Shown piece by piece: positions 7,959-21,614 of a DNA stretch of 64,000 nucleotides. The position numbers and the translations under genes are program-made. The DNA is from a virus, in the IMG/VR virus record IMGVR_UViG_3300045988_035487, positions 1 to 64,000 of that record; one strand, written 5' to 3'. Each line of letters opens with the position of its first letter. Position 1 is the stretch's first letter. The notes beneath the pieces were generated by a model. That model was not told the DNA's origin. It ran no database searches and saw nothing but the letters and a program-made list of their open reading frames with translations.

Positions 7959-8046
7959 GGAGAGTTGGGTGAGTGGCTTAAACCAGTCCCCTGCTAAGGG
8001 ACCGAACCTCAAAAGGGTTCCGCTGGTTCGAATCCAGCACTCTCCG
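7959..8046 (+). tRNA. tRNA-Ser(GCT), type II
   Basis: Acceptor GGAGAGT/ACTCTCC. Anticodon stem GTCCC/GGGAC with loop CTGCTAA. Long variable arm CGAACCTCAAAAGGGTTCCG. T arm GCTGG-TTCGAAT-CCAGC. Confidence 0.85.
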
Positions 8047-8098
8047 CGCTGGCTAATAAGAGTTTGCGAAAATCATTATTAACCTAATTATTAGAATT

Positions 8099-9673: not shown

Positions 9674-9745
9674 ACTGCTATCTACTAAGGGTTAGGTAAT
9701 CAGTCTCTCACACTGAAAATACGGGTTCGAATCCCGTTGGCAGTA
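9674..9745 (+). tRNA. tRNA-Glu(CTC) (tentative)
   Basis: Acceptor ACTGCTA/TGGCAGT (one G-U). 3-bp D stem. Anticodon stem TCAGT/ACTGA with loop CTCTCAC. T arm ACGGG-TTCGAAT-CCCGT. Confidence 0.55.
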
Positions 9746-10050
9746 CCTCGTACATAATCCTTCCAATCAGGTAACTGGTTAGGCAATAATAATCATGTAC
9801 ACTCTAAGGCAACGTAAGGGATGGAAGCTTAGACGGTAGCTAGCACTGTAGTACGCAATGGTGGGATAGAAACGGCTAGCACCCACTTTCTATGAATTGC
9901 CATGTCCCATTTGGCACATCTGAATAGTGATTGTGAGTTGGACACACGATTACAGTAAGAGAATGACTCAGCTAGCGGGAAGGGACAATATCTGAATAAC
10001 TGATTGCTAGTCCAAGCATAGGTTTTGAGGGTAGGTTAAGCAAGCTTCAT

Positions 10051-10124
10051 GGTGCATTCGTTCAGTGGTCTAGGACGCCACCCTGTCACGGTGGATATCA
10101 CGAGTTCGAATCTCGTATGCACCG
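10051..10124 (+). tRNA. tRNA-Asp(GTC)
   Basis: Acceptor GGTGCAT/ATGCACC. Anticodon stem CCACC/GGTGG with loop CTGTCAC. T arm ACGAG-TTCGAAT-CTCGT. Confidence 0.85.
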
Positions 10125-10182
10125 CTTTCTTTGATTTACAAAGGAGATGTCAGCACACTTGGTAACATCGTCTCCTGTTTAT

Positions 10183-10265
10183 GCCGACTTCGCATAGTGG
10201 TTGATTGCACGTGACTTGTAATCACGAGAGGAAACTCCACGTCAGTTCGAATCTGACAGTCGGCT
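10183..10265 (+). tRNA. type II (long variable arm, 3-bp D stem) tRNA with apparent anticodon TGT
   Basis: Acceptor GCCGACT/AGTCGGC. D arm GCA-TAGTGGTTGAT-TGC. Anticodon stem CGTGA/TCACG with loop CTTGTAA. 14-nt variable arm containing a GAG-GAAA-CTC hairpin. T arm GTCAG-TTCGAAT-CTGAC. 83 nt in total. Confidence 0.55.
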
Positions 10266-10352
10266 CGATTGTAATCCTAGATGATTACAGTTAGATTATA
10301 AATTACCACACAGAGATGCTTATTGAATTTAACATGTTAAATGTAAGTGTAA

Positions 10353-11703: not shown

Positions 11704-12453
11704 ATGGGTAAGAAATTGACCGAGGAGGAAGTAATATCTAGGTTTAGAGATGTTCATGGAGACAAATACGACTATAGTAAAGTCGTCTATGTAGATATGA
11801 ACTCTAAAGTAACCATTATATGTCCGGAGCATGGAGAGTTTGAACAAACTCCCGCCAAACACATTAATAGGAAGCATGGATGCCCTAAATGTAAGGGTAC
11901 TAAACTAAGAAACCACTTCTCTTCTACTACCGAAGAATTTGTAAGGAAGGCTGTTAGCAAACATGGCGACAGATATAACTACTCTAAAGTAGAGTATGTT
12001 AATTCTAGAACTAAGGTTTGTATCATGTGCAAAAAGCACGGGGAATTTTACGTAACTCCAGATAACCATCTAAAAGGACGTGGATGTCCTAGATGCAAAC
12101 AGTCTCGTGGAGAGAACATGATTGAAGCGTGGTTACAACGAAATAATATTCGTTATGAACGACAATTCGTATTGATTAACCAGGAGATAGACAGGCCCTC
12201 ACATAGATTAGTTATTGATTTCTTTGTAAAGCATAAAGGACGTCAGTATTTCATAGAGTACGATGGGGAACAGCACTTCAGCCCAACCTATAGATTCTAT
12301 GATAGCATGGCTGATTTCCAAATGCAGCAATACAGGGACCAGCTACTTAATGATTTCTGTGATAGACATAAGGATGCAGTTACCTTGATAAGGGTGAATT
12401 GTAGACAATGTGAAGCAGAGATAACTCATACATTAAGTAGCACAATAGCATAA
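11704..12453 (+). CDS. triple zinc-ribbon repeat protein with C-terminal restriction-endonuclease-like (DUF559/Vsr-like) domain
   Basis: The motif C-x-HGEF...GCPxCK occurs three times. The C-terminus (ERQFVLINQEIDRPSHRLVIDFFVKHKGRQYFIEYDGEQHF) resembles a PD-(D/E)XK homing or Vsr-like nuclease. Confidence 0.45.
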   Translation: MGKKLTEEEVISRFRDVHGDKYDYSKVVYVDMNSKVTIICPEHGEFEQTPAKHINRKHGCPKCKGTKLRNHFSSTTEEFVRKAVSKHGDRYNYSKVEYVNSRTKVCIMCKKHGEFYVTPDNHLKGRGCPRCKQSRGENMIEAWLQRNNIRYERQFVLINQEIDRPSHRLVIDFFVKHKGRQYFIEYDGEQHFSPTYRFYDSMADFQMQQYRDQLLNDFCDRHKDAVTLIRVNCRQCEAEITHTLSSTIA

Positions 12454-12457
12454 TTTT

Positions 12458-13525
12458 ATGATAAATATAGTTTTAGGTAGTTTCTTCGGCGATTGCGGTA
12501 AGGGACAGACAGTTCACAACTTATGTAACAAGTACATAGGTAAGCGAGAGTCTGTGTTAGTAGTCAGGTTTAGTGGTGGACATCAAGTAGGACATACTGT
12601 AAAGCATGGAGACATGATGCACACCTTTAGTAACTTTGGCAGCGGAACCTTACTTGGAGTGCCGACGTATTGGTCCGAATACTGTACTGTAGACCCAATT
12701 ACCTCTATGTTAGAGGGTGCAGACTTAGCTAAAATGGGAGTTCATCCCATTGTTCAGTATCACCCTCACTGCCAAGTTGTAATTCCCTTCGATGTCTATT
12801 CCCAAGTTAATAATGAAGAGAACTTACGACATGGTACTGTAGGTACAGGGTTTAAAGCTTGTTTGGACCGAGTTAAGGCAGGATACAGCTTAACAGTTGT
12901 AGATTGTATGAATCCTTACATACTACGTGAGAAATTAAATGCCATAGTGGATAACTATTACAACATGTCTAGTAAATATCCCTCGATAGACCTAGACAAC
13001 TGGTGTAGGTTAGCACATGCTTATTTCTTACATACAGGTACGGTTAATGAAGATTGCTTGTTAAACTATGACAACCTAGTGTTTGAAGGTTCACAGGGAA
13101 TATTGCTTGACCAAAGATTCGGCATAATGCCTTATTGCACTCCGTCTAATACAACTTCACAAAACGCTTACGAGCTGTTGCGGAAAGCAGGCATACGTAA
13201 AGAAATCCAAACTTGTTATGTAACTCGTCCTTATATAACAAGGCATGGTAACGGCCCATTTCCTTCTGGAATGTCTGTTAGGGATGTCGATGACCCTAAT
13301 AATAAGTTCAACGATTTCCAGAAGACGCTTAGGGCTATTGATTTCGACAAAGACCTATTCGCACACAGTGTACGCATTAACCGTTCATTTAAAGTTCCTT
13401 ATAGGAATGAACGAACGGAGAAATTGTACGTATCACATTGGGATGAAGCATCTGACGCAGAGCAAGAAATGCTAGCGAATCTATGGATGTCGATACAGCC
13501 CATGATATTCGATAAGTTAGTTTAG
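12458..13525 (+). CDS. adenylosuccinate synthetase (PurA) family enzyme, short form (PurZ-like candidate)
   Basis: Matches PurA motifs: GDCGKGQ (P-loop GDEGKGK), VVRFSGGHQVGHTV (VVRYQGGHNAGHTL), GTVGTGFK, VFEGSQGILLDQRFGIMPYCTPSNTT, RPYITRHGNGPFPS. Only 355 aa, against about 430 aa for cellular PurA. Confidence 0.75.
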   Translation: MINIVLGSFFGDCGKGQTVHNLCNKYIGKRESVLVVRFSGGHQVGHTVKHGDMMHTFSNFGSGTLLGVPTYWSEYCTVDPITSMLEGADLAKMGVHPIVQYHPHCQVVIPFDVYSQVNNEENLRHGTVGTGFKACLDRVKAGYSLTVVDCMNPYILREKLNAIVDNYYNMSSKYPSIDLDNWCRLAHAYFLHTGTVNEDCLLNYDNLVFEGSQGILLDQRFGIMPYCTPSNTTSQNAYELLRKAGIRKEIQTCYVTRPYITRHGNGPFPSGMSVRDVDDPNNKFNDFQKTLRAIDFDKDLFAHSVRINRSFKVPYRNERTEKLYVSHWDEASDAEQEMLANLWMSIQPMIFDKLV

Positions 13526-15804: not shown

Positions 15805-15886
15805 GGGGTAGTGCTGGAATTGGCAGACAGGCTTGGTTTAGGCCCAAGTGTCTTCGGGCGTGTGAGTTCGAGTCTCACCTACCCTA
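15805..15886 (+). tRNA. tRNA-Leu(TAG), type II
   Basis: Acceptor GGGGTAG/CTACCCT. Anticodon stem CTTGG/CCAAG with loop TTTAGGC. Long variable arm TGTCTTCGGGCGTG. T arm GTGAG-TTCGAGT-CTCAC. Confidence 0.8.
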
Positions 15887-16065
15887 CTAGATTATTAACT
15901 ATTAAATGTATTTAATTATGGTAGAAACTTTAAGTGAGCTGCTTGAAAATGCAGCTAACGTAGCAGAGGACAACGGTGGTAAGCTTTCTATAGCAAGTGC
16001 GGCAGTATTAATTGCTGAAGCTTACGAGTTAGGAATGGATAAGGCAACTAAATTATTGACAGAAG

Positions 16066-19601: not shown

Positions 19602-21614
19602 ATGGAATTTGTCAAGTTTAAAAGAGCAGTCCATGCGCAGTTTAATCGACTAGCTGCTGGTGCAGACATGCTCTTTCTGACTAATGTAGACAAGGATGCA
19701 TTATGGGATTGTTATCTTAATTCCTTTCCGGAGGAAGAGAGACAGTCTCATAATTGCAACAATTGTAAACATTATATCAGACATTATGGTAGAGTTGTCG
19801 CCATTAAAGACAATAAAGTAGTAACCATGTGGGAGAACCTACAGTTGGATGAACCTTATGCTACTGTAGCTAGAAATCTCGATGCATTAGTGAAATCAAA
19901 ACCAGTTGTAGATGTTTTTATCACTCGTGATTATGAACTAGGAATTGATAGAAACAATGCCTATATTGACAGTTTGCAAGGTCCTAAAGTAATTACCTGG
20001 AATCATCTTTACTATCATATGCCAAATCAATTGGTGTATACAGGAACTGAATCCGTATCTGCTGTAATGGGGACTTTACGCACAACTAAGGAAGTGTTCA
20101 AACGTGCACTGGAGGAATTAACTGTCGATTCTATAGAAACAGTTCTGGACTTAATAGGTCAGAATGCTTTATATAGAGGAGAACAGTTTAAAAATGACTT
20201 AAGTGTATTCCTGGGTCATAAAAGACACTATGATTCATTACCTGATGAAGAGAAAGACAACTGGTGTTGGGCAAACTTCAATCGTGTAGGATGTGCACGC
20301 ATTCGTAATACGGCAATTGGTACATTGTTGGTAAATATATCATCAGGACTTGAACTGGACGATTGTGTGACTGCATACGAACGTATCATGGCTCCAGAGA
20401 ACTATCAAAGACCTAAGTCAATTGTTACTAAAAGAATGATTGAGGAAGCACAGAAGAAAGTGCAGGAACTAGGTCTTATGGATTCTCTACCTCGTAGACA
20501 TGCTGCCTTAGAGGATATAACAGTCAACAATGTTATATTCGCTAACCGTGATGCCAAGAAGGTAATGGCCGGAAACATATTCGAGGAACTGGCCGCAGAC
20601 ACTAAAGTTAATCCTAAGAAGTTTGACAAGTTAACTGAAATTAGCATTGATGATTTCATTGCTAATGTGGTACCCACTGCCACTAACATAGAAGTGTTAA
20701 TGGAGAGTAGGCTGTCTAATAACTTAGTAACTCTTACAGCTCCTGTTAATAAGGATGCCAAGAATCTATTTAAATGGCCAAACAACTTTGCTTGGACATA
20801 TAATGGAGGAGTAGCTGATTCTATTAAAGAGAAAGTAAGAGCTGCTGGTGGTCAGACTGAAGGCTTCTTAAGATGTTCGTTGGCATGGTCTAACTATGAT
20901 GACTTGGATTTGCATGTCGTTGAACCTAATAATCTTGAAATTTATTACTCCAACAGAATCGGCAGAAGTGGTGGTAAGCTAGACGTGGATGAAAATGCTG
21001 GATATGGCAAAACTCGTAAACCCGTTGAGAACATTATATGGGTTGACGAACGTAAGATGCTTAAAGGTAATTACACCGTATATGTTAATAACTTCTGTTG
21101 TAGAGAATCTGTTGACACAGGCTTTACATTGGAAATAGAACACAATGGAGAAGTCCGACAATTTGTCTATGACAAGCCCGTTAAACATAAAGAGAATGTT
21201 AAAGTGGCCGAGATTACTTATAGTAAATCTAAAGGCATCCAAATAAGAGAGCTAATACCCAGTACTAGCAATTCGTCAATAGGCATATGGAATATTGATA
21301 CTAACAAGTTCCATAAGGTGAACGTGATGATGCTGTCTCCCAATTATTGGGATGAGCAGGGTATTGGCAATAAACATTACTTCTTTATGTTGGATGATTG
21401 CAAGAATCCGGAGCCTGTTCGTGGATTCTTTAACGAATATCTTAACAGTGAGCTAACTCCTCACCGTAAGGTATTTGAGGTTCTAGCTGATAAGATGAAG
21501 ACTCCTTACCAAGAACATCAATTGAGTGGATTAGGATTCTCATCTACTATGCGTAATTCCGTTATTGTTAAAGTGGACGGAACATTTAGTAGAACTTTAA
21601 AAGTCAATTTCTGA
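19602..21614 (+). CDS. large hypothetical protein
   Basis: 670-aa ORF with a CNNCKHY Cys motif near the N-terminus. No family recognised. Confidence 0.55.
   Translation: MEFVKFKRAVHAQFNRLAAGADMLFLTNVDKDALWDCYLNSFPEEERQSHNCNNCKHYIRHYGRVVAIKDNKVVTMWENLQLDEPYATVARNLDALVKSKPVVDVFITRDYELGIDRNNAYIDSLQGPKVITWNHLYYHMPNQLVYTGTESVSAVMGTLRTTKEVFKRALEELTVDSIETVLDLIGQNALYRGEQFKNDLSVFLGHKRHYDSLPDEEKDNWCWANFNRVGCARIRNTAIGTLLVNISSGLELDDCVTAYERIMAPENYQRPKSIVTKRMIEEAQKKVQELGLMDSLPRRHAALEDITVNNVIFANRDAKKVMAGNIFEELAADTKVNPKKFDKLTEISIDDFIANVVPTATNIEVLMESRLSNNLVTLTAPVNKDAKNLFKWPNNFAWTYNGGVADSIKEKVRAAGGQTEGFLRCSLAWSNYDDLDLHVVEPNNLEIYYSNRIGRSGGKLDVDENAGYGKTRKPVENIIWVDERKMLKGNYTVYVNNFCCRESVDTGFTLEIEHNGEVRQFVYDKPVKHKENVKVAEITYSKSKGIQIRELIPSTSNSSIGIWNIDTNKFHKVNVMMLSPNYWDEQGIGNKHYFFMLDDCKNPEPVRGFFNEYLNSELTPHRKVFEVLADKMKTPYQEHQLSGLGFSSTMRNSVIVKVDGTFSRTLKVNF

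Follow-up and report, generated by a model that had tools for sequence, protein, structure and literature searches.

In textbook accounts of bacteria and phages, the transfer RNAs (tRNAs) that carry a long variable arm are those for serine (Ser), leucine (Leu), tyrosine (Tyr) and selenocysteine (Sec). The subject of this work is a long-arm tRNA gene with a threonine (Thr) anticodon, UGU, at positions 10183–10265 (+) of a 64,000-nucleotide (nt) virus sequence (IMG/VR record IMGVR_UViG_3300045988_035487, positions 1 to 64,000), the whole of which is referred to here as the window. Class II tRNAs are defined by a variable region of more than 10 nt that forms a helix of 3–7 base pairs (bp) (PMC11559606). 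Natural precedents for combining such an arm with an anticodon other than Ser, Leu or Tyr are the nev-tRNAs of nematodes (PMC3333845) and the allo-tRNAs of bacteria, the latter having acceptor and T stems of 8/4 or 9/3 bp (PMC7609411). The nearest precedent for a tRNA family spanning both classes is tRNA-Leu of Streptomyces coelicolor, in which type I and type II forms are served by one synthetase (PMC6614811). In that case a class I member arose in a class II family; the present case looks like the converse, a class II member in a class I family (Thr).

A further point of comparison comes from phage defence. The PARIS nuclease AriB cleaves host tRNA-Thr(UGU), a prime target, and the tRNA-Thr(UGU) of phage T5, expressed together with T5 tRNA-Lys and tRNA-Asn, rescues both Escherichia coli and phages from PARIS (PMC12409363, Belukhina et al. 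2025). In the same study, T5 tRNA-Lys with its cleavage site restored still did not regain cleavage, a second AriB monomer was predicted on the D loop, and overexpressed viral tRNAs were considered as possible competitive inhibitors (PMC12409363). That paper says nothing of the extra arm of T5 tRNA-Thr and never uses the word “variable”; tRNA-Thr is absent from the first PARIS paper, and variable arms from a paper on phage-tRNA anticodon loops. Two further effectors act on tRNA-Thr, namely HepS, for which it is a secondary target (PMC13043305), and FaRel2 (PMC11559606). No description of a long-arm or class-II-like tRNA-Thr was found in a full-text literature search, outside of which the older T5 tRNA literature lies.

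Compared with these systems, the window gene is best read as a tRNA-Thr in a class-II-like form, predicted to work as an ordinary tRNA-Thr(UGU). It resembles T5 tRNA-Thr(UGU) in being phage-encoded, in its anticodon, the pairs G1-C72 and C2-G71, UAAUCA at positions 36–41, a 3-bp D stem, a UUCGAAU T loop and an arm laid out as 1 nt, 3 bp, a 4-nt loop, 3 bp and a tail. The two phages are however unrelated, and the T5 gene differs in having 87 nt, an encoded CCA, A73, a U3-A70 acceptor stem (GCUGGGU) and the arm GGA-GUAA-UCC. With E. coli thrU the window tRNA shares the acceptor stem, the anticodon-arm core and the identity elements, and an ordinary tRNA-Thr occupies the same slot in sister phages; where the window tRNA has a D stem of 3 bp and an arm of 14 nt, however, thrU has a D stem of 4 bp and a variable loop of 5 nt. 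Class II Ser, Leu and Tyr tRNAs resemble the window tRNA in their 3-bp D stem, their G15-C48 pair and a variable region that exceeds 10 nt and forms a helix, and its arm geometry is near that of the window's own tRNA-Leu(UAG) (1+3+4+3+2), but it has the anticodon and the acceptor-end signature of Thr. While nev-tRNAs and allo-tRNAs keep the identity of their body (Leu or Ser, or Ala) and mistranslate, the identity of the window tRNA agrees with its anticodon. On this reading threonyl-tRNA synthetase (ThrRS), processing enzymes and the ribosome would have to accept a class II tRNA-Thr, a long arm with a non-Ser/Leu/Tyr anticodon should not count in annotation as evidence of recoding or mistranslation, and the arm would offer a testable explanation for the escape of T5 tRNA from AriB.

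Fold and amino-acid identity of the window tRNA

The gene spans 83 nt including the discriminator U73, and its sequence places the anticodon UGU within a normal 7-nt loop. ARAGORN predicts tRNA-Thr(tgt) at 10183–10266, and Rfam RF00005 matches 10183–10265 over its full length (1–71) with 57.8 bits, above the gathering score of 29 that marks tRNA membership. In the Rfam alignment the 7-nt anticodon loop is CUUGUAA, and the variable region contributes an 11-nt insertion. The 5' strand of the acceptor stem, GCCGACU (10183–10189), pairs with AGUCGGC (10258–10264), which is followed by U73 (3' strand and discriminator, 10258–10265), to give among others G1-C72, C2-G71, C3-G70, G4-C69 and A5-U68; CCA is not encoded, the bases directly 3' being CGA. 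U8 and C9 stand between the acceptor stem and the D arm (10192–10208), in which a 3-bp stem GCA/UGC (10192–10194 with 10206–10208), an unpaired U13/U22 and the loop AGUGGUUGA leave 11 nt between the stem strands, a geometry of class II type supported by sequence, Rfam and covariation. Minimum-free-energy folding alone mispaired this arm, and the covariance model and comparative data were used instead. The anticodon arm CGUGA-CUUGUAA-UCACG (10210–10226; sequence and Rfam) holds the anticodon TGT (UGU) at 10217–10219, as called by both ARAGORN and Rfam, and positions 36–41 read UAAUCA in the window tRNA, E. coli thrU and T5 tRNA-Thr alike.

The variable arm, AGAGGAAACUCCAC (10227–10240), is composed of A, GAG, GAAA, CUC and CAC, with GAG (10228–10230) paired to CUC (10235–10237) around a GAAA tetraloop (10231–10234) and the 3' tail CAC ending in C48. 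With 14 nt and a 3-bp stem it falls within the architectural definition of class II, while the UGU anticodon and the Thr-type acceptor end place the gene outside class II as delimited by isoacceptor family (Ser, Leu, bacterial Tyr). The T arm, GUCAG-UUCGAAU-CUGAC (10241–10257; sequence, Rfam and covariation), completes the cloverleaf. The structural description in the first-pass annotation, an 83-nt type-II-shaped tRNA with UGU in CTTGTAA, a 3-bp D stem and a 14-nt GAG-GAAA-CTC arm, is correct in every listed detail, as is the observation that its anticodon loop lies one base from that of the Ser-UGA tRNA at 2452–2538, CUUGAAA. The check proposed there, that predictors might fold the gene with a canonical Ser, Leu or Tyr anticodon, came out in favour of UGU, which both ARAGORN and Rfam keep in the 7-nt loop, and no alternative register of the window tRNA puts GUA or UGA at 34–36 of a closed 7-nt loop.

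Bacterial Thr determinants comprise G1-C72, C2-G71, G4-C69, G5-C68 and G34/G35/U36, with N73 unimportant (PMC9976931). G1-C72, C2-G71 and G4-C69 are all present in the window tRNA (GCCGACU/AGUCGGC), as are G35 and U36 in the 7-nt loop CUUGUAA; G5-C68 is replaced by A5-U68, a weak criterion given that E. coli thrU likewise has A5-U68. Indeed, the whole acceptor stem and a 13-nt core, UGACUUGUAAUCA, are common to the window tRNA and thrU, the sequence of the latter having been obtained by coordinates. In bacteria, Ser identity depends on G73, C72, G2-C71, R4-Y69, C11-G24 and G30-C40 together with a large variable region; seryl-tRNA synthetase (SerRS) ignores the anticodon, and C2-G71 is an antideterminant for it (PMC9976931). 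Tyr identity depends on A73, G34 and U35, and A73 is critical for Leu (PMC9976931). Against G2-C71 and G73 of Ser, the window tRNA has C2-G71 and U73 beside its large arm, and the arm stem has 3 bp versus 5 bp in the window Ser(UGA). C72, R4-Y69, C11-G24 and G30-C40 do occur in it, though these are not Ser-specific. It carries U73, U34 and G35 where Tyr calls for A73, G34 and U35, and U73 where Leu calls for A73. Its 7-bp acceptor and 5-bp T stems also differ from the 12-bp acceptor branch (8/4 or 9/3) of allo-tRNAs, and with 57–59% identity to the window Ser and Leu tRNAs it is no closer to these than to Lys or Asp tRNAs.

The same acceptor signature extends to the wider family described below. 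Among 145 long Thr(UGU) sequences the 1-72 pair is G-C in 98%, the 2-71 pair C-G in 99% and N73 is U in 87% (126/145) or A in 11%, and the 62 short Thr tRNAs (UGU, GGU, CGU, AGU) from the same loci show the same signature at all three positions, U73 being carried by most ordinary Thr tRNAs in long-Thr loci. Other families from these loci read differently: Ser tRNAs (n=110, phage and bacterial) have G-C at 2-71 in 96% and G73 in 66%, Tyr tRNAs (n=48) have A73 in 94%, and long Leu tRNAs (n=87) have A73 in 99%. The comparison with related tRNA-Ser and tRNA-Tyr suggested in the first-pass annotation returns acceptor ends that match tRNA-Thr instead. The identity-bearing acceptor end and anticodon arm are, judged by sequence, those of a tRNA-Thr, and the D arm and variable arm are class-II-like. 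As a separate observation, the window tRNA-Ser(UGA) (2452–2538, +) has U73 instead of the usual bacterial G73, a base also found in 27/110 of the collected Ser tRNAs.

Codon use was examined alongside. In 57 window open reading frames (ORFs) the Thr codons are ACT (57%), ACA (26%), ACC (12%) and ACG (5%), so that ACT and ACA make up 83%. A conserved 670-amino-acid (aa) gene at 19602–21611 was aligned with 97 homologues of at most 70% identity. The columns at its 10 ACA codons have mean frequencies of 0.38 for Thr and 0.14 for Ser, close to the 0.37 and 0.12 at its 23 ACT codons, while Ser codons fall in columns with Thr at 0.00–0.12, apart from AGC (n=2; 0.32). A 99% Thr column holds one of the ACA codons, and there is no sign of avoidance of ACA at conserved Thr positions among the 10 ACA codons of this gene.

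A long-arm family in phages and bacteria

Relatives were collected from IMG/VR and from genomes; such scans give lower bounds, their frequencies are not population estimates, and the loci are parts of contigs. Low-stringency blastn identified long tRNA(UGU) genes, annotated or unannotated, in the Pseudomonas jumbo phage HPP-Temi and a Synechococcus phage. An IMG/VR pattern scan requiring UUGUAAUC, a long gap and GUUCGAAUC, a pattern which fixes the anticodon, returned at least 120 loci, and 88 of the 120 listed carry an ARAGORN tRNA(tgt) of 81–93 nt. In a second scan the anticodon was left free and only the D-arm motif GCATAGYGGTYGATTGC (GCAUAGYGGUYGAUUGC) was required. Among the matches listed, 93 tRNAs in newly fetched loci comprised 75 long Thr(UGU), 2 short Thr(UGU), 1 long Thr(AGU), 11 Gly(UCC), 2 Tyr, 1 Met and 1 Ser(GGA), with Ser(UGA) absent from the 93. 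UGU therefore dominates without being imposed, which identifies it as the conserved anticodon of this scaffold.

Pooling phage contigs and bacterial genomes gives at least 145 unique long-arm tRNA(UGU) sequences, of which 143/145 have perfect acceptor and T stems. Their variable region ranges from 11 to 21 nt, the commonest layout being 1 nt, 3 bp, a 4-nt loop, 3 bp and 3 nt. A gap-free alignment of the 51 members of 83 nt was scored against the cloverleaf with the added arm, and 99.0% of cells are paired versus 69% in shuffles, with double, compensatory changes at 22/23 pairs. None of 500 shuffles attains any of five measures, and sliding the partners by 1–3 columns lowers pairing to 29–44%. 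All five helices covary: the acceptor stem is 100% paired with compensatory changes, and the arm helix (columns 46–48/53–55) is likewise 100% paired, with two-sided changes at all 3 pairs and 4–5 pair types at each. No variation is seen at U8, A14, G18G19 or the Levitt pair of G15 and C48. This covariation rules out a pseudogene or predictor artefact, and with it the suggestion that the tRNA might be inactive.

A query drawn from the subgroup with A73 and CCA matched 113 cultured phages, nearly all of them T5-like (Escherichia, Salmonella), in which the gene is annotated as plain tRNA-Thr. The copy in T5_ev212 has 87 nt and the arm A-GGA-GUAA-UCC-CGUU. A long-arm tRNA-Thr(UGU) is carried by at least hundreds of phages, T5 among them, and by some bacteria; it is a conserved design, and neither a mutant nor a tRNA that mistranslates.

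A genome scan gave at least 120 loci, with 32 true long tRNA-Thr(UGU) genes among the matches listed. The bacterial lineages concerned are Spirosoma/Spirosomataceae (isolates S. fluviale, S. arboris and S. utsteinense, loci L128, L150 and L179), Eremiobacterota (L131, L238 and others), Kiritimatiellia (L161 and others) and Acetobacteraceae-like metagenome-assembled genomes. These copies lie beside cellular genes (DUF349, amidase, ECF sigma factor, lipocalin-like protein). The gene upstream is common to the reference and 6/6 other Spirosoma genomes, and the downstream flank is shared in 8/9 Eremiobacterota. In the latter phylum a Tyr(GUA)-Gly(UCC)(-Thr(GGU)) cluster lies 0.6–4 kb away from the copy, with the Thr(GGU) gene in 3/10 loci, an arrangement that recalls thrU-tyrU-glyT-thrT-tufB of E. 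coli. From this synteny the bacterial copies are taken to be vertically inherited chromosomal genes, and threonine may constitute a fourth class II family in some bacterial lineages.

The relation between long and ordinary forms is best seen in relatives of the window phage, for which 53 loci were fetched via a downstream 310-aa protein. The slot after tRNA-Asp holds a tRNA-Thr(UGU) in 49/53 loci and none in 4/53. An 84-nt long form is present in 19/53 and an ordinary 73–75-nt class I form in 30/53, with 19 distinct alleles overall. Even among 20 near-identical phages (98–100% protein identity), the long allele is found in 14 and the short one in 6. When the window is compared with one such relative (locus L346), both spacers match to the base, the left one (10126–10182, +, between tRNA-Asp and tRNA-Thr) up to the first base of the tRNA and the right one (10266–10352, +) from the base past the discriminator, while the tRNA body differs at 52 positions in a pairwise alignment. 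The difference reads as an exact cassette replacement, with no insertion or deletion of the arm. As the swap is exact and at the same slot, long and short Thr forms are functionally interchangeable.

The two neighbouring genes, tRNA-Glu(CUC) (9674–9747, +) and tRNA-Asp(GUC) (10051–10125, +), are also biallelic (loci L346–L362): in each, 14 differences over about 75 positions separate the two alleles, and in tRNA-Asp differences fall within the anticodon stem-loop. Asp, Glu and Thr alleles assort independently in phages whose ORFs differ by just 1–3%, and exact allele swaps suggest that the tRNA slots of this phage population are under diversifying selection. In this clade UAAUCA is found at 36–41 in 5/7 long alleles versus 1/12 short ones. 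A link between the long form and retention of UAAUCA, with mutation of the motif in short alleles, was considered and set aside, the pattern being weak in the clade and failing family-wide (11/52 long forms of the D-arm scan).

Function of the gene and of its arm

On the basis of its fold, its family, the conservation of its anticodon, the Thr-type acceptor signature, the use of ACA as Thr and the exact interchange with class I tRNA-Thr(UGU), the window gene is very probably a functional, threonine-charged tRNA-Thr(UGU) of class-II-like shape. It would be co-transcribed with the neighbouring tRNAs, followed by end processing and CCA addition by the host. Host ThrRS would read the ordinary tRNA-Thr elements (G1-C72, C2-G71, G4-C69, G35 and U36), and the charged tRNA would insert threonine at ACA and, by wobble, at other ACN codons. 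Amino-acid identity would be unaffected by the extra arm, which would belong to an old, widely shared tRNA-Thr(UGU) lineage found in many phages, including T5-like ones, and on some bacterial chromosomes. The T5 rescue is experimental but indirect evidence that a long-arm tRNA-Thr(UGU) can work in E. coli translation. Several points weigh against this assignment. The codon test covers only 10 ACA codons of one gene, and host tRNAs read ACA too. Several Ser determinants are present (C72, R4-Y69, C11-G24, G30-C40 and the long variable region), making some serylation possible, and ThrRS is a class II enzyme whose structural fit to the extra arm is only assumed.

What the arm is for is a separate matter. 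The window gene is a phage copy of a tRNA species targeted by immune nucleases (tRNA-Thr(UGU); AriB, HepS), and the arm together with the remodelled D arm may, tentatively, be kept in phages as an altered shape which escapes effectors such as AriB. Effectors of this kind attack host tRNA-Thr(UGU); the shape-altered phage copy would survive and translation would continue. Since UAAUCA is kept in both T5 tRNA-Thr and the window tRNA, any resistance has to come from elsewhere in the molecule. In T5, moreover, the arm-bearing tRNAs outside the class II families, Thr(UGU) and Asn(GUU), the latter an 83-nt gene with the arm GUC-GAAA-GAC (L400, 17163–17245, -), are those needed beside tRNA-Lys against PARIS. 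Two findings weigh against this role: bacteria carry this architecture stably in their chromosomes, and UAAUCA stands at 36–41 in as few as 11/52 long forms of the D-arm scan. Escape from AriB has also been ascribed to substitutions near the cleavage site, in a study outside of which cleavage of T5 tRNA-Thr lies (PMC12409363). A broader version, in which a class II arm on class I tRNAs is a widespread phage strategy for hiding replacement tRNAs from shape-reading effectors such as AriB, is rather unlikely; it would further hold that armed and unarmed alleles swap as exact cassettes in phage populations and that the design is the resident tRNA-Thr(UGU) of a few bacterial lineages.

The strongest competitor grants a functional tRNA-Thr and regards the arm as selectively neutral baggage of a chimeric ancestor (e.g. 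a thrU-tyrU-type recombinant) with no role in defence, and its probability comes close to even. In Eremiobacterota the adjacent tRNA-Tyr, a class II tRNA, has a similar D arm and arm geometry, tyrU and thrU are 8 nt apart in E. coli, and the arm is stable on bacterial chromosomes. Against neutrality stand the compensatory changes that maintain the arm helix over large distances, the swapping of long and short alleles between near-identical phages beside biallelic tRNA-Asp and tRNA-Glu, and the need for two armed T5 tRNAs, Thr(UGU) and Asn(GUU), along with tRNA-Lys against PARIS. A Tyr-chimera origin of long Thr is itself speculation; the mean identity of long Thr to co-resident tRNAs is 0.56–0.67 for all families, and no clear donor emerges.

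It is improbable that the gene is a tRNA-shaped decoy which mainly titrates a host tRNA-targeting effector instead of translating. Such a role would fit the competitive-inhibitor idea of the AriB authors and the retention of the AriB site UAAUCA in the window and T5 tRNA-Thr. It would leave unaccounted for the conservation of the Thr identity set and of tertiary-fold nucleotides (G15-C48, G18G19, the T loop), the bacterial chromosomal copies, and the position of the gene as the one tRNA-Thr of a window in which ACT and ACA form 83% of Thr codons.

Very little probability attaches to a serine- (or leucine-) accepting class II tRNA with a Thr anticodon that misinserts at ACA in the manner of nev-tRNAs and allo-tRNAs, close to what the first-pass annotation had in mind in proposing a Ser-bodied tRNA that could mistranslate ACA. 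The long variable arm, the indifference of SerRS to the anticodon (PMC9976931), the four shared Ser determinants and the natural precedents make the idea reasonable, but the body is not that of a Ser tRNA, given 57–59% identity to the window Ser and Leu tRNAs, C2-G71, U73 and the 3-bp arm stem as against 5 bp in Ser(UGA). U73 and the SerRS antideterminant C2-G71 are found almost throughout the family; the Ser tRNAs from these loci favour G2-C71 (96%) and G73 (66%), and the A73 needed by leucyl- and tyrosyl-tRNA synthetases is absent. As for mistranslation, ACA aligns to Thr columns just as ACT does, including conserved Thr positions, an ordinary tRNA-Thr(UGU) is the alternative, interchangeable allele, the gene is conserved on bacterial chromosomes, and the T5 homologue brings back growth after destruction of host tRNA-Thr(UGU).

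A functionless copy of tRNA-Ser(UGA) or tRNA-Tyr, degenerate or newly mutated, or a predictor misfold, is scarcely credible: a loop one base from that of Ser(UGA) and a GUA inside cuuGUAauc had invited the terms “recently mutated” and “misfolded tRNA-Tyr”, but 145 distinct sequences have intact covarying helices, UGU is conserved unimposed with no UGA relatives (75 long Thr(UGU) and 0 Ser(UGA) among the 93 tRNAs of the D-arm scan), no GUA register exists in a closed 7-nt loop, A73 and G34/U35 are absent, and true tRNA-Ser(UGA) and tRNA-Tyr coexist with the gene, ordinary tRNA-Tyr(GUA) in 19 long-Thr loci.

Other long-arm tRNAs and the genomic neighbourhood

Extra arms also occur on phage tRNAs for Asn(GUU), Cys(GCA), Ile(UAU), Lys(UUU), Gly(UCC), His, Met, Pro and Val, and are commonest on Thr(UGU). 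Example long-arm loci from IMG/VR are L030 7501–7584, L050 10680–10765, L065 3605–3691 and L018 4919–5004. Among the tRNAs co-resident with long Thr, roughly 9–33% of each such type are long. The long-arm tRNAs that were inspected retain the acceptor signature of their own anticodon, long Gly having G1-C72, C2-G71 and U73 in 8/9. In HPP-Temi (L001, 1594–1680) an odd 87-nt, long-arm gene annotated as tRNA-Phe stands beside the long tRNA-Thr, with a predicted anticodon AAA and a loop, CGAAAAG, without U33. The reverse change is seen in phage tRNA-Leu of about 77 nt, class I-shaped and without a long arm, with A73 in 28/29 unique short Leu sequences; T5 has two of these (L400, 14881–14957 and 19050–19126).

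The window is a phage region of about 37–40% GC with all genes on the + strand, and the Thr tRNA is part of an array of 23 tRNA calls within the first 25 kb (ARAGORN), with no second tRNA-Thr among the ARAGORN calls in the window. Pfam and PHROG scans of the neighbouring ORFs gave no synthetase or tRNA-modifying enzyme, and promoter and terminator scans near the tRNA-Thr gene gave matches not above shuffles. Megablast of the region against cultured phages returned no match, the closest cultured phages being distant, while proteins near-identical to those of the window number thousands in metagenomes.

Other calls in the array include Ser(GCU) (7959–8047, +) and Leu(UAG) (15805–15887, +), the former overlapped by an antisense Arg(UCG) call (7986–8062, -) which is probably a false positive; none of these three is listed by Rfam at the gathering threshold, at which other class II tRNAs were recovered. 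A 73-nt tRNA at 549–621 (+) has the anticodon CUA (ARAGORN label “Pyl”, amber-suppressor type, Rfam 62.7 bits). TAG is the stop of 7/57 tallied ORFs, so any recoding by this tRNA would be partial or timed. At 11704–12453 (+), an ORF of 249 aa whose product has treble-clef zinc-finger domains (DUF4379, DUF723) is present in some sister phages and cleanly missing from L346, L347, L348 and L394 (750/750 positions differ), a pattern as expected for a mobile, homing-endonuclease-like gene in a tRNA region. It is followed at 12458–13525 (+) by an adenylosuccinate-synthetase-like protein (Pfam PF00709, 5e-33; PHROG 1211, 6e-45). PHROG 1211 groups the PurZ-type enzymes, and through this protein the phage may be able to swap adenine for 2-aminoadenine in its DNA.

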